Shown: positions 1,361 to 9,635, counted from the stretch's first letter. The stretch is DNA of 64,000 nucleotides from an uncultured archaeon (GCA_963810275.1 CAWENF010000021.1:128001-192000), one strand, 5' to 3'. Translations and numbers: made by a program. Notes: generated from the sequence alone by a model not told the origin.

Positions 1361-2629
1361 TTATGCGTAGCCCAGCAGTAGAAAAATCAGCACAAACAAG
1401 GTGACAATTACACCGAGTGCTGAAGCCAAGATCTTCTTAGTCAACGAAAGCTCTGGTTTTATTGCGTCCACAACGAACACACAAAGTACGCCTAGCCAGA
1501 CGTAGGTGGCAACGAAAAGGAATGATGTTATGGCATTGAATATAGCTGTTGAGGCTTCTATGCTGCTGAACGCTGTCATGGCTGTGGCTGAGAGGCCCTC
1601 TGCCGCCATTGGTGGATACGTTATTGCACCATACCATGTGAAGGCCAAGCCTGTGGAAAGATCAAATGGATAGTATACGGCAGGCAACGCGGCGGTTGCA
1701 ACTAGGTTTAGTACTGCTCGGATGACTAAGACGACTAATGCTACGCCTACCGCGATGAACAAGGGTTTCCAGACCAAGTCAACCTTTAAGCCTTTCAGAA
1801 CAAGGTAGATGACGGCGGCTGTGAGTAGCCAAAGCACCAAGAACTGAAGCGCAACTGACTGCAGACTGGAGAAAACAATTACCATAGGATCGTTTTCCGC
1901 CAGAGACATGTACTGTCCACGGAAGAATAATGCGCTTATGCGCACGGTTATGTCATAGTTTTCTGGGTAAGTTAAATCCAAGCTGAGTTTAGTTATGTTG
2001 CTCCATGTAGGGTTGCCGTTCTCTGTCCAAGCGGGAGCATCGGGTCCGATGGGCACGGTTATATTGTTCCACTGCCCAATCAAAGAAGTATTAGACAACT
2101 CGTATGTCAAATCGTAAGTATAATAGTCAGCGTCGTTTAAGCTGTAAAGCGTTAACTGAGCGTTTTCTGGTGTAACACTGCTTGGATAAACCAGCTTCAA
2201 TATCATGGAGAGGTTTTGGAAGCCGTTTACGCTGCAGTCCACGTTAAATGCGTTGCTGATTGTCGCCGAAATATTCTGAGCATCTGCTGCTCTAAACTGA
2301 AGACTGCTTGTGCCGTATAAGTCCGGGTAATCCCCGAAGCCTGACACGAACACCGTGTAGTTTAGGTGGTCTGCTACGTCGGTTATGTTAACGCCTGAAC
2401 TTGCACTCCAGTTACCTGAAGTTGCTGAAGTGTATTCTTGGAATAGCCCCGGCTGCGGCGAAGTGACTTCCAAATTAGTTTTTGACAACTGGGCATATTC
2501 GTAGCCCATCTGTAAACCAATGAATAGGATAAGAACGATGATTGCGGCAAGGTATTTGGGGTTAGCTACTATTTTCTTAAAAGCCTTATGAGGTGCGTAA
2601 ATGATTTCTGCTATGTCGGCGAGAATCAA
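1361..2629 (-). CDS. Yip1-like membrane protein with a large extracellular insertion
   Basis: IIYAPHKAFKKI Yip1-like start, one TM, ~200 aa S/T/N-rich domain with many NxS/T sequons, then several C-terminal TMs. Confidence 0.6.
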   Translation of the reverse strand: MILADIAEIIYAPHKAFKKIVANPKYLAAIIVLILFIGLQMGYEYAQLSKTNLEVTSPQPGLFQEYTSATSGNWSASSGVNITDVADHLNYTVFVSGFGDYPDLYGTSSLQFRAADAQNISATISNAFNVDCSVNGFQNLSMILKLVYPSSVTPENAQLTLYSLNDADYYTYDLTYELSNTSLIGQWNNITVPIGPDAPAWTENGNPTWSNITKLSLDLTYPENYDITVRISALFFRGQYMSLAENDPMVIVFSSLQSVALQFLVLWLLTAAVIYLVLKGLKVDLVWKPLFIAVGVALVVLVIRAVLNLVATAALPAVYYPFDLSTGLAFTWYGAITYPPMAAEGLSATAMTAFSSIEASTAIFNAITSFLFVATYVWLGVLCVFVVDAIKPELSLTKKILASALGVIVTLFVLIFLLLGYA

Positions 2630-2780
2630 CTCTATTTAGCTCCTGTGCTATTTCAGAATTACACGAACATTTAAGTGTTGTTCAAGTCTCCAAGCATAAA
2701 GTGTAAAACAGCATTTCTCGCCCCTTGACCCCAAACTATAGAGCCACCAAAAGAAGCAACAAAAATCGGAAAAAGGCATT

Positions 2781-4289
2781 TTACATGCCTTGTTTTAGGC
2801 GGCGATAAGTCGAGTAGTCAACGTATTCCAAAAACTTGCTTTCAGCTTGGGATTTAACGTTGATTTTCTGCCGCCCCCTCTTATCCAAAAGCTGGCTGGT
2901 TGTACGCAAAACGTAGGCGTCACTGCCCGCGCCAGAGCCGTAACTTGCCACCAAGATGCTCTCTTCAGGTTTGGCAATGTCAAGAATGGCTGCTAAGCCA
3001 ATGAGGGAAGCGCCGCTGTAGGTGTTACCGAACTTTGTCATCTGTATGGCAGGCATGAACTGGTCTTCTTTGAAGCCTAGGTCTTTGGCGACACGCATAG
3101 GGAAGGTCGGGTTTGGCTGATGGGGCACAAAGTAATTTAGATCCTCTGGCTTTAGGTTGCATCGTTCCATGAGTTTGGAGGCGGCTTTTTTAACGTGTTT
3201 GTGGTAAGCTGGGTCGCCTGTGAATCTACCGCCGTGACTTGGGTAGGGTTCACCGTCTCTGCGCCAAAAATCAGGCGTATCAGAGGTGCAGCTGTACCAA
3301 CCTTCCACCTCGGCGATAACATCTTGTTTGCCAAAAATGTAGGCTGCACCACCGTAACCTACGAACATATCTAATTCGCCTCCGGGGCAACCGCGTGGGG
3401 CTGCCTGAGAGTTATCTGCTCCGATAACCATAGCGTAACGGATGTTAGATTTGGGGTAACTCACCAAAGCGCAAGCGTCTTTGAACATGCTGCTGCCTGC
3501 CTTGCAAGCGAATTCTGTGTCAACTGCATCTACACTCTGCATATCGCCGTCTTCCTCGCCCAGCTTGAGTACTTGGGCTACTTTGGCGGCTATTGGCTTT
3601 ACAGCATAGGGGTTTGATTCACTGCCAACATAGACTTTGCCCACCCAGCTACTGTCTATGCCTGAATGGATAAGCGCCAATTTGCCAGCTTCCACAGCTG
3701 CAGTCACAGAGTCCTCGTCGATAAATGGCACCGCACGCTCCAGATTTGTTTCTTTTATGCGAAATCTAGATGAGTAAACGCCGTAGCCTACAACGCCGGG
3801 CAACTCATAGTCATTGGTAGGCTGCACAATCTTGTATTCTTGATGAGGATAGTACTCGTCTGCCAGTGTGAACGCCAGCGAAATTGTGGGAATCATCTCA
3901 CGTTTACCAACAGAGTACCGTCTGCGAAAACGCGGCACAACTTCTCTACCCTCCAGCTTCGCTGGGTCGAAGTCTATGCTTCCACACATAGGCTGATCGG
4001 TTAAACGTGCGGGAACACGGATTTTGCCCCCGTGGAAAGATACGATGCCGTAGATATAGCTGCCCAACTTGGAGAACTTGTTTGTCGGTTCATTAATTAA
4101 TGTACATAGTTCAAGGGTGCCCTTATCATAAAATAGGTCCATGCTCTCCATTTTGCCATAGCTTTTACGTCCACATTTGCTGCAGTAATCACGCACTTCA
4201 AAGTATTCTTTACCGCAACAGCTGCATCTGCAAGCTTTAAGGCGGTCACCCAAATAGCTAACTCTACGCTCGATTGGTTCGCTGCTCAT
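2781..4289 (-). CDS. Hydroxymethylglutaryl-CoA synthase with N-terminal DUF35 (Zn-ribbon/OB-fold) fusion
   Basis: N-term CSCCG...CSKCG and PRFRR (DUF35); C-term DEDSVT, GSESNPYAVKP, FACKAG, PHQPN, GNTYSG, SYGSGAGSDA of archaeal HMGCS. Confidence 0.9.
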   Translation of the reverse strand: MSSEPIERRVSYLGDRLKACRCSCCGKEYFEVRDYCSKCGRKSYGKMESMDLFYDKGTLELCTLINEPTNKFSKLGSYIYGIVSFHGGKIRVPARLTDQPMCGSIDFDPAKLEGREVVPRFRRRYSVGKREMIPTISLAFTLADEYYPHQEYKIVQPTNDYELPGVVGYGVYSSRFRIKETNLERAVPFIDEDSVTAAVEAGKLALIHSGIDSSWVGKVYVGSESNPYAVKPIAAKVAQVLKLGEEDGDMQSVDAVDTEFACKAGSSMFKDACALVSYPKSNIRYAMVIGADNSQAAPRGCPGGELDMFVGYGGAAYIFGKQDVIAEVEGWYSCTSDTPDFWRRDGEPYPSHGGRFTGDPAYHKHVKKAASKLMERCNLKPEDLNYFVPHQPNPTFPMRVAKDLGFKEDQFMPAIQMTKFGNTYSGASLIGLAAILDIAKPEESILVASYGSGAGSDAYVLRTTSQLLDKRGRQKINVKSQAESKFLEYVDYSTYRRLKQGM

Positions 4290-5488
4290 TGTTTTTTATC
4301 TCCTAAAATGGTGGCAAAAGCCTTAGTTCCAAAACCTTCAAACTCCAAAACGCCACCGTACTTGAGCCCACCTTCCACGGCTACTTGGCGATCTGCCGCT
4401 TCCCCGCGGAGTTGACGGAAAACCTCGTAAATCATGGCTCCGCCTGTAGCGCCAAGCGGGTTACCATCTGCTTTTAATCCGCCATCGGTGTTAACGTAAA
4501 GTGGTTTGCCGCCGAACTCGTAGTGAAGCCTGCTTTTCTTGTAGCTTTCAAATATGCTTCTCCAAGCGACGCCAGGCTGGCAGAAGCCTAGGTCTTCGAG
4601 AATCGCCATCTCCATCATGGTTGACTGGTCGTTGACCTCCATAAGAGGGATTTCAGAAGCTGAGACGCCAGAACGATTAGATGCCTTGTTCATTGCTAGC
4701 TCTGCAGCTAAGAACCGGGTAAGGTCCGCTCTTGCGGGGTAGTTAAGGTAGTCAGTAGCGGAGCCTGTGGCTAGAACGTAGACTGGGTTGTCAGTCATTT
4801 TCTTCGCCACTTCCTCGCTGGCTAAAATAATTGCTGAGGCCCCGTCAGATATGGGTGCGAAGTCAAAAAGCCCCAAAGGTTTGTTAGCTGATTTGCGGGC
4901 GTCCACAACATGATTAATTGAGATACCACGCTGGAACTGGGCATACTTGTTTTTAGCGCCGTAAGCGTGATTTTTAACTGCAACCTGCGCAAGCGAAGTT
5001 TTGAAATCCTCTAAATCCTGCCCTGTTATGCCATATTTCTTGATGTAGGCACGCATCATTAGTTCATGGTTAGATTCAGGAGTGCCGCCAGCGAAGTAGC
5101 TCCATGGGTCCTCTAAGAGCATGAGGTCATCTCGGATTTTATCCCAGCGATCCGTCATTTTCTCGATGCCACCCACCAGCACAGTGTCGTAGATGCCGGC
5201 TTGTATTGCGCGGGAAGCCATCATCAACGCTGAGCTGAAGCTGCGGGTAACCTCCATAGGAACATGCAACTCTGTGAGTTCAGAGAGGAACCCCTCTTCT
5301 AGCCCCAACTTGTTGGTTATGGGTAAAAAGCAATCGGACATGTAGCAGGCTTCTAGATTTTTGCGTTCCATGCTACATTCGTTTGATGCGGCAAGCCAAG
5401 CTTCCTCGATGAGTTTCTCGGGCTCTTTGCCGTAGTGCTCACCGAACTTGGTTCTGCCGACAGCAACTATGGCTGGGCGATTCTGCAT
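4286..5488 (-). CDS. Thiolase-family protein (archaeal acetyl-CoA acetyltransferase-like) lacking catalytic residues
   Basis: GRTKFG, GGIEKM, PISDGASA, GGLKADGNPLGATG; the nucleophile Cys loop and both His residues are absent. Confidence 0.85.
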   Translation of the reverse strand: MQNRPAIVAVGRTKFGEHYGKEPEKLIEEAWLAASNECSMERKNLEACYMSDCFLPITNKLGLEEGFLSELTELHVPMEVTRSFSSALMMASRAIQAGIYDTVLVGGIEKMTDRWDKIRDDLMLLEDPWSYFAGGTPESNHELMMRAYIKKYGITGQDLEDFKTSLAQVAVKNHAYGAKNKYAQFQRGISINHVVDARKSANKPLGLFDFAPISDGASAIILASEEVAKKMTDNPVYVLATGSATDYLNYPARADLTRFLAAELAMNKASNRSGVSASEIPLMEVNDQSTMMEMAILEDLGFCQPGVAWRSIFESYKKSRLHYEFGGKPLYVNTDGGLKADGNPLGATGGAMIYEVFRQLRGEAADRQVAVEGGLKYGGVLEFEGFGTKAFATILGDKKQ

Positions 5489-5502: not shown

Positions 5503-5537
5503 GCTAAGTAATTTTTTTAGCTAAGTAATTTTTTAGC
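5503..5537. promoter_or_regulatory. Tandem imperfect palindromes (candidate operator) upstream of the thiolase-HMGCS operon
   Basis: gctaagtaatttttttagc (5503-5521) and gctaagtaattttttagc (5520-5537), 15-50 nt upstream of the start at 5488. Confidence 0.45.
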
Positions 5538-5799: not shown

Positions 5800-7194
5800 T
5801 TATATAGTGCGGTTAACTTCGTTTTCTAGGATTTGTTGCTTTATTTCTTCGGTTAAAGCCGCAAGTTTTTCGCTCAACTCCACTGGGTAAAATGGCGCGT
5901 TAACGAGAGCATGATATTTAAGCGGCAGTTTGGATAGGTTCTCAGCTGCAACATGGCGGATCTTCTCAAGCGCAGGCAAATCATAAACTAACTCGCCGCG
6001 CTCAATCACTTTAACTAGAAGCGGGGTGCCCAAGACGGGTTCATCAGCCAATGCAATCACATCTTTTAAGAAGCTGCCATCAGCATCAAAGATACGGTAA
6101 ACCTGTTTTCTGCCCGGCAAAGTAATCTTGTCTTTGCTAAGCTTCATAATCGGCGTAAAGCTGCCATCGGAGTTCTGAGTTTCGCACAGCTTATAGACAC
6201 CGTCGAGGTAGGGACGGTCGCTACTGGTGCCCATCTTTGTACCCACGCCGAAAGAGTCAATCGGCGCCTCCGAGAAAAGCAGTTCTTGGATTTTATATTC
6301 GTCGAGGTCACCGCTGGCAAAAATTTTGGTGAAGTTCAAACCATGTGAATCAAGTATTATCCTAACTTTCTTGCTTATCTCAGCTAAGTCGCCGCTATCC
6401 AGCCGGACCCCACCAAGCTTGATGCCCTGCGCCATCAACTCTTTACCGACCACCGAGGCTTTCTCGGCTCCGGCAATGTCGTCGTAAGTATCTATCAGAA
6501 GAATACATTTATTGGGGAAAGTTTTGGCAAATGCCCGGAAGGCTTCTATTTCTTTTTGATAAGACATGATGAAGCTATGTGCCATTGTGCCAAAAACGGG
6601 GATTCCGTAAGCCAACCCTGCTAATACATTGCTTGTGCCTTGGCATCCTGCGATATAGCTACTGCGCGCCACTTTAAGCCCTGCGTCAATGCCGGGTTCA
6701 CGGCGCAAGCCGAATTCGATGACGGCTTTACCTTTAGCTGCTTGGATGACGCGGCTGGCCTTGGTGGCAATCATGGTTTGGAGGTTGATGCTGTTTAAGA
6801 GGAAAGTTTCGGCGAGTTGCGCTTCGATGATGGGGGCGGTTATGCGTAGCAGGGGCTCGTTTGGAAAGACTACTGTTCCTTCTGGGAGTGCCCAGACTTC
6901 GCCTGAGAAGCGGAAGTTTTTGAGGTAGTTAAGGAAGTCATTTTTGAAGCCCTGCTTTTTGAGGAATGTGAGATGTTCTTCGGTAAATTTGATGTATTGG
7001 AGGTATCCAAGGGCTTCTTGCAGGCCTGCAAAAAGGAAGTAGCTTCGGTTTTCTGGGAGGCGGCGGATGAAGAGGTCAAAGGTGGCGGTCTCGAAATTTT
7101 TGTTGTCAAAGTAGGCTGCACACATGGCTAGTTCGTAGAAGTCTGTGAAGAGGCTCATGTTCTCCTCTTTTAGGGCATTCAGAAACGGTTTCAT
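5800..7194 (-). CDS. pncB: Nicotinate phosphoribosyltransferase
   Basis: LFTDFYELAM, EFGLRR, GTMAHS, LIDTYD, VRLDSGD, GVYKL motifs. Confidence 0.95.
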   Translation of the reverse strand: MKPFLNALKEENMSLFTDFYELAMCAAYFDNKNFETATFDLFIRRLPENRSYFLFAGLQEALGYLQYIKFTEEHLTFLKKQGFKNDFLNYLKNFRFSGEVWALPEGTVVFPNEPLLRITAPIIEAQLAETFLLNSINLQTMIATKASRVIQAAKGKAVIEFGLRREPGIDAGLKVARSSYIAGCQGTSNVLAGLAYGIPVFGTMAHSFIMSYQKEIEAFRAFAKTFPNKCILLIDTYDDIAGAEKASVVGKELMAQGIKLGGVRLDSGDLAEISKKVRIILDSHGLNFTKIFASGDLDEYKIQELLFSEAPIDSFGVGTKMGTSSDRPYLDGVYKLCETQNSDGSFTPIMKLSKDKITLPGRKQVYRIFDADGSFLKDVIALADEPVLGTPLLVKVIERGELVYDLPALEKIRHVAAENLSKLPLKYHALVNAPFYPVELSEKLAALTEEIKQQILENEVNRTI

Positions 7195-7541: not shown

Positions 7542-9635
7542 TTAACGTTCTATTGAGATTTTGCTTATTCCAGCTTCTTTTTCCAAAACAACGACGTGGT
7601 CGCCCTTTGCCGCAAAAGCTTCGCTATGAGTGACAGCAATAATCTGCTCGATAGCTTTGAATCGGCTGATTGCCTCTGCCAACCTCTCGATGCTTCCGTC
7701 TTCGCTGCCTAAGTTCTCAGTAGGCTCATCCAACATAAGCATACTCAACCCATGCCCCGTGCGGCTTTGCATAATAAGCTGTCCCAAACCGAGACGGTAC
7801 GCAAACGCCAGCAAAGTACGCTCGCCCCCAGAGAGGTTGCTAACTTCACGGTTTACGCCTGCCTCGCTTTTTACATAAGGAGTGTAGCTTTCGTCAATAA
7901 CCACGTTAAGCATTTGGGTTTCGCCTCCTACGAGGCTGTCAAGCACTTGTTGTACAAAGTTTTGCAGTACCTTGACGAATTCCATGCGTAGTTTAGGCTG
8001 GATACTTCGGTAGGCGTCTCTGATAGCGCTTAGCAACTCGACGGTGAGGCGGATTTTGTCCATGCGCTCCAGCTTCTGCTGCGCTTGGTCTATGCGGTCT
8101 TTGGTGTCGTCTAAGCGGCGGGCTAAGTCGGCTTTTCGGTTCTGCTTAGTCTTCAAATCGGACTGCACGGCATAGTATACCTGCATTGCTTGGTCTTTCC
8201 GGATTTTAGATGCCTGCAACTCGTCAAAGTTAAACCCTACGATTTCCGCTTGGAGTTTTTCAAGTTTGATACGTTGGTCAGCTTCAACCCGACGTTGAAC
8301 CTCAAGACGGTCGTTTAGCTTCTTGAGGTTGCTTTCCTCTTCGGCGATACGTGCTTTGAAGTCCCCGCTTCGGGCGAGGCATTGCTGGAGGCTGCTGATG
8401 GCTTCCGAAGCGTCACGTTTGTTTTTTTGCAATTCAGCTGCATCTATTCGGAGGCGGTTTACGAGTTTTTCCCGCTCGTCATTATCGTGTTGGATGCTAT
8501 GTAACAGGTCAGTGCGATAATCGCCACTTAGTGCCTGGCTGCATAGTGGGCATTCCCCGCCTCCGGTACCCAGCTGCAACATGCGTTTTTGGTCCTGCTG
8601 GAGGCTGCGACTAGTGGCTTCCTGCTCAGCGCGAAGGGAAGTGATTTTTTCATCAAACCCAGCAAGAAGCGTGTTCAGCTGGTCAAGCTGTTGACATGAT
8701 GGCAACCCAGCTTGCTCCAGTTTGGTGGTGCATAGCTTGATTTGGCTATCCAGCGAGGTTTGCCGCTGCAGAAAGTTGCTGATAATAATTTTTTTGCCCT
8801 CAACCTGCTCAGCCAAATCCGCTACAGAGCGGGCAGTGTTGGTAAGATTGGCGCTTAAGCGTGCTTCTTGACGTTTAAGCTCCTCCATAGCTTGCTTTTT
8901 GTCCTCCAGCCGCTTCAGCTCAGTCTCCGCTTCGTCCCAGCCGTTTTTGGCTCTGGAAACTCGCTGCTCAGCCGTTTCAAGGTCCATCTCGAGCCCCATA
9001 AATTCCTCGCTGGCTCGGTTGTAGTCAGCGTTAAGTTTTTCAATGCTGTTGACGTCAGGGTCTTTTTGAAAGAAGCTCAGCTCATTTTCATAATCTCGCC
9101 TATACTGTGCAAGATGGGTCCATGCGACTTCGTAGTCAGCTAGCCCGAACAGTTGGTCAAGGCGTGTTTGCCGGTCTCTTGGTTTGGCGTCGAGGAGCTC
9201 CTTAAGGTGTTCCTGCCTGAACCAAACGATTTCTCGGTACAATTCCCTGTCTAAGCCAGTTATAGCTCGGAGTTGCTCGGCGATGGCGTCGGTTTTCATG
9301 CTTGCCACAAGCTGCTCGTCCTCGTAGAGTTTGAGTTGCTCGATATCTTGCAGTATGCTCTTACCTCTCCGGCGCAGTCCGCGAGTGAGTTTGTAGATGT
9401 TTCCGTTCTGAGTGAACTGCAAAGTAACCTTGCAGCAATCACAACCTTCTCGCAGTAGGTAATCAAACGTTCTGCCGCTCACAATATCGCCAAACAGCGC
9501 AAAGTCTATTGCATATAGCAGGCTAGATTTGCCGCATCCAACGCCGCCCACGACGCAGTTGAAGCCATGCGAGAAGAGCACGGTTGATTTGGTGTGACTT
9601 CGGATGCTTTCTAAGACTAGGGCGTCGATTTTCAC
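7542..9635 (-). CDS. rad50: DNA double-strand break repair ATPase Rad50
   Basis: Walker A GGVGCGKS, coiled coils, CPLC zinc hook, LSGGE signature, LDEPT Walker B. Confidence 0.92.
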   Translation of the reverse strand: MKIDALVLESIRSHTKSTVLFSHGFNCVVGGVGCGKSSLLYAIDFALFGDIVSGRTFDYLLREGCDCCKVTLQFTQNGNIYKLTRGLRRRGKSILQDIEQLKLYEDEQLVASMKTDAIAEQLRAITGLDRELYREIVWFRQEHLKELLDAKPRDRQTRLDQLFGLADYEVAWTHLAQYRRDYENELSFFQKDPDVNSIEKLNADYNRASEEFMGLEMDLETAEQRVSRAKNGWDEAETELKRLEDKKQAMEELKRQEARLSANLTNTARSVADLAEQVEGKKIIISNFLQRQTSLDSQIKLCTTKLEQAGLPSCQQLDQLNTLLAGFDEKITSLRAEQEATSRSLQQDQKRMLQLGTGGGECPLCSQALSGDYRTDLLHSIQHDNDEREKLVNRLRIDAAELQKNKRDASEAISSLQQCLARSGDFKARIAEEESNLKKLNDRLEVQRRVEADQRIKLEKLQAEIVGFNFDELQASKIRKDQAMQVYYAVQSDLKTKQNRKADLARRLDDTKDRIDQAQQKLERMDKIRLTVELLSAIRDAYRSIQPKLRMEFVKVLQNFVQQVLDSLVGGETQMLNVVIDESYTPYVKSEAGVNREVSNLSGGERTLLAFAYRLGLGQLIMQSRTGHGLSMLMLDEPTENLGSEDGSIERLAEAISRFKAIEQIIAVTHSEAFAAKGDHVVVLEKEAGISKISIER

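Follow-up and report, generated by a model that had tools for sequence, protein, structure and literature searches.

A thiolase-like protein devoid of catalytic residues accompanies an intact DUF35-HMG-CoA synthase fusion across an order of Bathyarchaeia

The membrane lipids of all archaea depend on the mevalonate pathway, and in the archaeal complex of thiolase, 3-hydroxy-3-methylglutaryl-CoA (HMG-CoA) synthase (HMGCS) and DUF35 the unfavourable thiolase reaction is thought to be pulled forward by channelling acetoacetyl-CoA into HMGCS. This complex is represented by PDB entry 6ESQ (Vogeli 2018, as cited in PMC12960953 and bioRxiv 2024.07.05.601840). Its HMGS is reported to show no activity when produced without its partners (Vogeli 2018, cited in PMC12960953), and loss of the His of the HDxF motif of the thiolase is by itself sufficient to abolish activity, either as H284A in the archaeal complex or as H294Y in PfACAT (PMC12960953). 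Here we describe a locus in a 64,000-nucleotide stretch of DNA from an uncultured archaeon (GCA_963810275.1 CAWENF010000021.1:128001-192000, hereafter the window), where a gene encoding a thiolase-like protein of 400 aa, termed PT (pseudo-thiolase), precedes a gene for a DUF35-HMGCS fusion. PT has the SCP2/archaeal-type thiolase fold, while its catalytic residues are all lost.

The open reading frame (ORF) of PT (4286..5488, minus strand) is full length and in frame, as the initial annotation of the window had stated; it contains no internal stop codon, and Pfam recognizes both thiolase domains in the product (PF22691, 9e-24; PF00108, 1e-10). The motifs were compared by alignment with the thiolase chain 6ESQ_A and with the intact thiolase of the same genome. 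At the HDCF-equivalent position N286-D287-Q288-S289 (4622..4633, minus strand), EVHDCF has become EVNDQS, so that neither the catalytic His nor the acid/base Cys remains. The GHPVGATG motif (GHPxGATG) has turned into GNPLGATG (G342-N343-P-L-G-A-T-G349; 4442..4465, minus strand) with the loss of its His, and the C-terminal HNIGGSG is replaced by LEFEGFG (L381-E382-F-E384-G-F-G387; 4328..4348, minus strand), where E382 and E384 are fixed in PT at positions occupied by N and G in the intact relatives. The EVNDQS, GNPLGATG and EFEGFG changes had been listed in the initial annotation and are borne out by both alignments. Its reading of the nucleophile loop as VTRSFSSA was right in that the loop holds no Cys; the Cys was, however, not substituted by Phe but removed by a deletion of four residues at codons R82-S83 (5240..5245, minus strand), which took out the 'AACA' of TEAACASGG including the nucleophile, so that TRIEAACGSGG is represented by TR----SFSS in PT. 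The deletion is clearest when PT is aligned with the intact sister sequence LTEAACASGGSAF, against which it reads VTR----SFSSAL. Moreover, the Ser preceding xxSDGA, which by analogy with the Zoogloea thiolase would be the residue hydrogen-bonded to pantetheine, is Ala211 in PT.

Of the features of archaeal thiolases, PT thus retains the five-layer fold and lacks the Cys of CxS, the HDxF motif and the His of GHx. The closest solved structure is 6esq_A (1.2e-44), the thiolase of the thiolase/HMGCS/DUF35 complex of M. thermolithotrophicus. Likewise, the nearest placement in NCBIfam is the archaeal thiolase subfamily, with scores far under the curated cut-offs: 275 against 420 for NF004720, the archaeal SCP2-type thiolase model, and 219 against 600 for NF053570, the equivalog model of the M. 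thermolithotrophicus thiolase. The intact relatives also stayed under the 600 cut-off of NF053570 (352-579), and two of three passed 420 on NF004720 (498 and 574), the third, from genome G115, scoring 381. The motif losses make acetoacetyl-CoA synthesis by the known mechanism impossible for PT, and consequently thiolase-to-HMGCS channelling cannot operate. The automatic label 'acetyl-CoA C-acetyltransferase' is therefore probably wrong for PT, as are the Bathyarchaeia pathway reconstructions that rest on it.

To follow these changes in the homologues, a collection of 5.8 billion proteins was searched, and the best 120 matches were 72-100% identical to PT. Several of them carry source names such as 'acetyl-CoA C-acetyltransferase' or, alternatively, 'thiolase family protein' together with Bathyarchaeia or Bathyarchaeota, and the taxon name Bathyarchaeia used here rests solely on these source names. 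The loop deletion and the GN of the GHP-equivalent motif were present in all 120 homologues, while Gln in place of the acid/base Cys and Glu in place of the Asn of HNxGG were each found in 119. No homologue had His at the HD position, which was occupied by N (74), Y (41), S (2), C (2) or P (1). A second set comprised 36 PT orthologues taken from genome loci of 12 GTDB families of the window's order, with identities of 55-100%. The same changes were found in all 36, the last motif being unreadable in one sequence cut at a contig end; at the first HDCF position, 22 of them have Tyr, 13 have Asn and one has Cys, YDQS being the form of most orthologues outside genus g1. The initial annotation had argued that four such changes are not noise, and their recurrence in 120 of 120 homologues and throughout the order lies far beyond chance or sequencing noise. 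It had also considered that orthologues might retain the Cys and His residues or that another Cys might occupy the active site. Neither was found: all 120 homologues and all 36 orthologues share the Cys-loop deletion and the Asn for the GHP His, and no Cys is invariant across the PT family, the commonest one (position 92) being Ser in the PT of the window. This second point was assessed by conservation.

The positions that replaced the catalytic residues are not drifting. Among the 36 orthologues 113 of 400 columns are invariant; 55 invariant positions are common to PT and the intact thiolases, the GxxGATG and SDGA segments being kept, and 14 residues are fixed in PT yet differ from the residue conserved in all intact relatives. 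The replacement residues Q288, N343, E382 and E384, together with R82, E138 and E142, are nearly invariant. Clustering at 50% identity collapsed the whole PT family into one full-length representative, and no other sequence with all four residues lost was seen among the 119 full-length cluster representatives inspected, where Cys-less members keeping both His residues are common. The ratio of non-synonymous to synonymous substitution rates (dN/dS) was estimated by the Nei-Gojobori method for 12 genome pairs. PT gave 0.046-0.102 in the 10 pairs with finite dS; dS of PT was saturated in the other two and exceeded 1 in several, so that only the pairs of low dS are trustworthy. For the two pairs with the least saturation (dS 0.23 and 0.52) we obtained 0.055 and 0.076 for PT, 0.030 and 0.075 for the intact thiolase, and 0.034 and 0.055 for the HMGCS fusion, indicating that PT is as constrained as its catalytically active neighbours. 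The loss of the catalytic residues is thus ancient, fixed and accompanied by strong purifying selection.

In two related genomes (G020:C7:28024-29204 and G129:C20:23733-24919), PT is broken into two pieces by a TGA in frame or by a changed frame; either faulty assembly or a genuine inactivation of recent date could be the cause.

The gene following PT (2781-4289, minus strand) encodes a fusion protein of 502 residues. Its DUF35 domain (approximately aa 1-145; 3855..4289, minus strand) consists of a zinc ribbon formed by C22, C25, C36 and C39 and an OB fold, and residues 17-89 match the DUF35 chain 6esq_E (4.8e-7), PF12172 giving a weak match. The HMGCS domain (approximately aa 164-502; 2781..3800, minus strand) matches the HMGCS chain 6esq_I over residues 184-496 (5.2e-75). 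The description of this neighbour as an intact DUF35-HMGCS proved correct: the fusion reached 367 bits on the archaeal HMGCS equivalog model NF003274, whose cut-off is 244, its catalytic residues are intact, and E224, C262, H390 and N422 were invariant in all 29 fusions aligned, where the zinc-ribbon Cys residues were conserved too. This E-C-H-N tetrad is given as the defining feature of HMGS in the part of PMC12960953 cited here. No further HMGCS was found in the genome (2.26 Mb, 92.6% complete), thus the fusion is the only one detected. The segment following 'RIK' in the N-terminal part of its HMGCS domain is 19 residues shorter than in the classic operon forms, and a four-residue 'PGGE' insertion is present. 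The TGA stop codon of PT overlaps the ATG of the fusion in the sequence ATGA (4286..4289, minus strand), an arrangement that suggests translational coupling within one operon, and the two genes are inferred from it to be co-transcribed. The fusion gene lies directly downstream of PT in 29 of the 30 related loci fetched, the exception being cut by a contig end.

The AlphaFold2 (AF2) model of PT, built on an alignment of 133 rows, was of high confidence (mean pLDDT 93.9, pTM 0.94), and its best Foldseek match was again 6esq_A (TM 0.92/0.94, rmsd 1.9 Å), followed by SCP2-thiolases, PhlC/MucB, BbsB, TbSLP and Ltp2. When PT was modelled together with the fusion, as the initial annotation had proposed, the predicted complex placed PT on the DUF35 domain with an ipSAE of 0.78 against 0.00 for the best of three controls; of 157 solved complexes 116 attain this mark, as do 2 of 215 mismatched pairs. 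The runs shared at least 96% of contacts, and the pLDDT of the partners was at least 92. Since a like complex (6ESQ) has been solved, such a result indicates likeness to a known interface rather than proof that this copy binds, and the binding of PT to the fusion via the DUF35 domain is to be taken as a prediction. The confident contacts connect residues 10-139 of the fusion with residues 116-150, 201-204 and 249-256 of PT. The predicted DUF35-facing loop region of PT (residues 116-146; 5051..5143, minus strand) holds L125, P137, E138 and E142, four of the 14 PT-specific fixed residues, and the commonest residue has a mean frequency of 0.84 at the 30 listed interface positions (between 116 and 256), compared with 0.78 overall. 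The predicted interface adjoins the former substrate cleft of PT.

The distribution of PT was surveyed in 151 genomes of the window's order with a completeness of at least 90%, an orthologue being accepted at E below 1e-100. Under these settings 136 genomes carry PT. Of the 15 that do not, two look like assembly gaps, G038 has a classic three-gene operon, and G115 has no thiolase besides an intact one encoded before a DUF35-HMGCS fusion. Two further genomes show no HMGCS: neither G026 (98% complete) nor G118 (90%) gave one with the archaeal HMGCS family model, and G026 gave none with the fusion as query either. The remaining PT-less genomes are the nine of family f11 (G034, G049, G053, G076, G083, G101, G104, G112 and G123), which are without an archaeal-type HMGCS and encode instead a protein of 457-468 aa whose match to the archaeal HMGCS model is confined to the N-terminal half of the model (E about 1e-24 to 1e-28). 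This protein is presumably an HMGCS of a different, stand-alone type, in which case a single order would have seen repeated replacement of the first steps of the mevalonate pathway.

In a sample of 201 genomes covering the class, 66 had a match at E 1e-60 or better, and all but nine of these belong to the window's order. The nine loci outside it comprise six with an intact thiolase before the fusion, a classic operon (G175), one PT (G194) and one partly degenerate form (G172). The PT of G194 (locus L069, G194:C3, ORF 2308-3507, plus strand), the only orthologue outside the order in the class sample, is further diverged, with a CFSSAL loop and the motifs EVCDPST, GSPLGAKG and LEHEGFG, two of the changed positions being Cys. 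The thiolase of G172 (locus L074, G172:C2, ORF 2700-3884, minus strand) has a four-residue deletion at the same place and Ala for the acid/base Cys, while both His residues are kept (EVHDATS, GHPVGATG), which looks like an independent or intermediate loss. As its fusion partner retains the long classic N-terminal segment of HMGCS, the loss in G172 was probably a separate event. Another partly degenerate case is the cluster representative P0124 (GGGSASG, EIHDSY, GNPLGATG).

Trees were computed with IQ-TREE (35 rows) and FastTree (70 rows) from sequences of 360-440 aa, without fragments, that were chosen to span the groups. In the IQ-TREE tree, the thiolases linked to a fusion, that is, PT, the intact forms, G172 and P0124, form one clade (100/99), within which the PT sequences are monophyletic (100/100), their stem being the longest inner branch of the tree (0.70), and FastTree agrees; the branching order among these four is not settled by the tree. 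Thiolases of the type found on contig C4 of the window's genome, which is described below, group apart in both trees, together with those of the classic operons. An origin of PT as a recent duplicate of the C4 thiolase was rejected, as the two fall into different well-supported clades. The ancestral intact state is still present in sister lineages, and the simplest course of events would start from a working thiolase encoded before a DUF35-HMGCS fusion in Bathyarchaeia. Catalysis would have been lost once, on the stem of PT, in a burst of change affecting the nucleophile loop, the His and Cys of HDCF and the His of GHP, after which PT would have been frozen and kept nearly unchanged. The partner HMGCS may have changed alongside, by the deletion after 'RIK' and the PGGE insertion.

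If PT cannot form acetoacetyl-CoA, a Cys-containing thiolase might be expected elsewhere in the genome, and one was found, as the initial annotation had anticipated. Contig C4 of the same genome (G000) encodes an intact thiolase of 393 aa with the motifs EAACGSG, EVHDCF, GHPVGATG and HNIGG, followed by a stand-alone DUF35 protein of 133 aa; the pair lies at C4:92087-93666 (L005 6088-7667) next to SufC/SufBD-like genes. On the M. thermolithotrophicus thiolase model the C4 thiolase scored 436 bits and the intact fusion-linked thiolase of G115 352, so that it is not obvious which of the paralogues was the 'original' mevalonate thiolase. All 21 genomes inspected, which had been chosen for having a second thiolase match listed, encode such a thiolase and DUF35 side by side, again with the motifs intact. 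More broadly, a further thiolase-family match was found in 126 of the 136 PT-bearing genomes, and four more bearers have a classical thiolase of 433-445 aa, raising the number with another thiolase-family gene to 130 of 136. Because the DUF35 OB-fold model PF01796 proved insensitive, missing the fused DUF35 in five of six genomes, the stand-alone DUF35 protein was used as query along with positive controls. Where the fusion-linked thiolase is intact, another one is often absent: no second thiolase was found in G115, G174 and G275, and G213 has one, while the genomes with a degenerate partner, G172 and G194, have several others. The numbers are small and the genomes related, thus this is a pattern and not a test. 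Routes depending on malonyl-CoA (NphT7-like or TbSLP-like) were set aside, as a carboxyltransferase was found in none of the five genomes searched. In five genomes, KAS III (PF08545) matched nothing but PT itself, in three of them and weakly, below the threshold.

Considering these results, PT is probably a structural pseudo-thiolase subunit of a thiolase/HMGCS/DUF35 complex for which acetoacetyl-CoA is made elsewhere. It has the marks of a pseudoenzyme, that is, loss of the residues of the ancestral reaction together with purifying selection on a conserved full-length frame. The initial annotation had offered such a subunit, with acetoacetyl-CoA supplied by another thiolase, as one of two readings; the fixed loss, the intact fold and the predicted docking on DUF35 favour the first part of it, and the C4 pair and the 130 bearers with another thiolase-family gene favour the second. 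PT would still assemble with the DUF35-HMGCS fusion and would be needed for the solubility, the assembly or the substrate site of the synthase, whereas HMGCS alone would be the catalyst. Acetoacetyl-CoA would come from a free pool filled by the C4-type thiolase + DUF35 pair, or by a classical thiolase in some genomes, and would reach HMGCS without channelling. That the HMGS of the archaeal complex is inactive on its own would give a reason for keeping a dead partner. Several observations weigh against this interpretation. A purely space-filling role does not require near-invariant replacement residues, which could instead form a new ligand site. In the complex model, none of the confident contacts involves the HMGCS domain, leaving a shared CoA site without support there. 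Furthermore, six of the 136 bearers (G056, G122, G033, G168, G125 and G139) have neither another thiolase nor a stand-alone DUF35. All are drafts with a completeness of 91-97% (95% for G056, 93% for G122 and 97% for G033), and as the thiolase and DUF35 genes are adjacent, one assembly gap would remove both. Such gaps are likely for G033, G168, G125 and G139, because relatives in the same genus or family carry the pair. G056 and G122, however, are the only two genomes of genus g20 in the genome set, and the source of acetoacetyl-CoA in this genus is unexplained. Neither these two nor G033 had a KAS III match over the family cut-off, a carboxyltransferase or a clear 3-hydroxyacyl-CoA dehydrogenase, the last of which is present in G125.

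The same genomes provide the argument for a route without any Cys-thiolase, since G056, G122 and G033 possess PT and the fusion only. PT/DUF35-HMGCS would then make HMG-CoA from acetyl-CoA, for example if Cys262 carried out both condensations and PT offered a second acetyl-CoA site. We know of no precedent for an HMGCS performing both. With another thiolase-family gene in 130 of 136 bearers, with genomes of the intact fusion-linked type tending to lack a second thiolase as if one working thiolase were needed, and with draft assemblies in which a single gap could remove the pair, we regard this as very improbable. In its boldest form, suggested by genus g20, where PT and the fusion are the only thiolase-superfamily machinery found, a remodelled complex would build HMG-CoA from acetyl-CoA through the Q288/N343/E382/E384 pocket or the HMGCS Cys; this is hardly more probable and, if true, would represent a new start of the mevalonate pathway.

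The second reading of the initial annotation, an Ltp2-like aldolase, belongs to a wider group of possibilities in which PT has acquired a new function and its remodelled pocket (Y/N286, Q288, N343, E382, E384 and H141) catalyses a non-thiolytic reaction of a CoA ester, such as a (retro-)aldol step like that of the DUF35-associated Ltp2 and Sal, feeding or modifying the HMGCS reaction. The near-invariance of the replacement residues would fit such a role, as would the frequency of Cys-less relatives of the SCP2 type, and thiolase-like partners of DUF35 repeatedly took on new chemistries as far as the cited parts of PMC12960953 and PMC12329534 go. The YDQS form of 22 of the 36 orthologues also recalls the YDHF of Ltp2, the YDCY of Sal and the YDCF of TbSLP; according to the portion of PMC12329534 used here, the Tyr is the catalytic base in Ltp2 and Sal, and Y302F abolishes the activity of Sal. 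Yet this essential Tyr is not kept in PT, the position being Asn in the window and in 13 of the 36 orthologues and Cys in one, under purifying selection that is strong throughout, and the third position is almost always Gln288, where the aldolases need Cys or His (PMC12329534, in the part cited). The lack of a carboxyltransferase in the five genomes speaks against decarboxylation of malonyl-CoA in the manner of TbSLP, and Ala211 stands where the presumed pantetheine-binding Ser would be. On balance a new catalytic function appears unlikely, and the aldolase in particular is disfavoured. Somewhat less likely again is a regulatory PT that binds CoA or an acyl-CoA and tunes the activity or assembly of HMGCS without turnover. 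The strong conservation of the remodelled site and the retention of GxxGATG and SDGA as in active thiolases are in line with it, and the predicted DUF35 interface lies beside the old cleft, just as the DUF35 zinc finger shapes the substrate cleft in Sal (PMC12329534, in the part cited). Sequence data cannot separate ligand sensing from a purely structural role; the missing Ser at position 211, if the analogy with the Zoogloea thiolase holds, argues against pantetheine binding. Apart from the split genes of G020 and G129, nothing points to PT being a pseudogene in decay, a defect of single strains or an artefact of assembly. Its reading frame has full length in the window as in all 36 inspected orthologues, the same changes recur in 120 homologues from many independent assemblies, dN/dS is about 0.06 and the fold is modelled with high confidence; this explanation has a negligible probability and was rejected as already refuted by the conservation data.

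Upstream of PT an A+T-rich intergenic region of 311 nt contains a tandem direct repeat of 16/17 nt (ctaaaaaattacttag / ctaaaaaaattacttag; 5504..5536, minus strand), located 16-48 nt before the ATG of PT, which may be a duplicated archaeal promoter element. The neighbouring genes of the window, namely a nicotinate phosphoribosyltransferase with three NAPRTase domains (5800-7194, minus strand), a coiled-coil ATPase of 697 aa that is Rad50/SMC-like by eye (7542-9635, minus strand) and a membrane protein of 422 aa with no Pfam match (1361-2629, minus strand), have no evident link to the mevalonate pathway. In a salt-marsh metatranscriptome (run X1), three contigs of 151 nt were identical to 2852-3002, 3068-3218 and 4604-4754 of the window, one of them falling in PT and two in the HMGCS gene, at a depth of 2. 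This is too little to indicate transcription or co-transcription, carry-over of DNA is possible, and these contigs were not counted as evidence; their identity indicates that the sample contained a very close relative of the organism.

Across one order of Bathyarchaeia, the synthesis of archaeal membrane lipids thus appears to start with a step that has been reorganized around a scaffold subunit without activity. In this large and abundant order the complex appears to have been kept with its thiolase half switched off over a long evolutionary time, implying that channelling is dispensable and that the structural role of the thiolase subunit can outlive its chemistry. The intact, half-degenerate (G172, P0124) and fully degenerate relatives offer a series in which the origin of a pseudoenzyme inside an obligate complex could be followed. 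In a full-text literature search whose coverage left out most subscription journals, no description of a complex of a dead thiolase with DUF35-HMGCS was found.

Among the described systems, the archaeal 6ESQ complex is the closest. All three components have their best solved matches in it, the genes are adjacent, the fold of PT agrees with that of its thiolase (TM 0.92), DUF35 is likewise predicted to sit on the thiolase-like subunit, and the HMGCS tetrad is intact. It differs in that PT is without the Cys nucleophile, the His and Cys of HDCF and the His of GHP, that DUF35 is fused here to the N-terminus of HMGCS, that the HMGCS carries the shortened segment after 'RIK' and the PGGE insertion, and that a second, intact thiolase + DUF35 pair is encoded elsewhere in the genome. 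Ltp2-ChsH2(DUF35) and Sal-Shy(DUF35) (6OK1; PMC12329534, in the part cited) resemble PT in having an SCP2-thiolase fold without the nucleophile Cys, 6ok1_C being a fold match, in the fusion of the partner DUF35 domain to another enzyme, and in the Tyr at the first HDCF-equivalent position, which most PT orthologues outside genus g1 share. In these aldolases, however, Tyr and His/Cys stand where the PT of the window has Asn286 and Gln288, DUF35 is attached to a hydratase instead of HMGCS, and no steroid-catabolic context is seen here; the similarity of PT to Ltp2 is also far lower (1e-11 for 6ok1_A against 1e-44 for 6esq_A). TbSLP of Trypanosoma brucei (5AB4-5AB7) is another thiolase-like protein of unclear function with a non-canonical active site and a fold match (TM 0.84). 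It keeps the Cys of its YDCF motif (PMC12329534, in the part cited), where PT has N/Y-D-Q-S, it has weak activity towards malonyl-CoA, while the genomes searched here yielded no carboxyltransferase, and it has no HMGCS/DUF35 partner.

The bacterial complexes PhlACB, MucABC (SmaATase) and P. fluorescens PfACAT/HMGS-DUF35, as far as described in the cited part of PMC12960953, share the tripartite architecture, in the last case with HMGS and DUF35 fused, and each retains one dead subunit of the thiolase superfamily that is needed for assembly or activity. The Friedel-Crafts acyltransferase subunit PhlC/MucB has kept the Cys of CxS and GHx and lost HDxF (PMC12960953, same part), while PT lacks the Cys and the His of GHx as well. 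The bacterial complexes have left the mevalonate pathway (PMC12960953, same part), whereas the HMGCS described here would serve lipid synthesis, being the only one found in the genome of this archaeon. The genome mining reported in that part of PMC12960953 covered bacteria only. There the HMGS is dead and the ACAT alive (PMC12960953, same part), and here the ACAT is dead and the HMGS alive; the PT system can thus be regarded as a variant of the archaeal thiolase/HMGCS/DUF35 complex and as a mirror image of its bacterial counterparts Phl, Muc and PfACAT.

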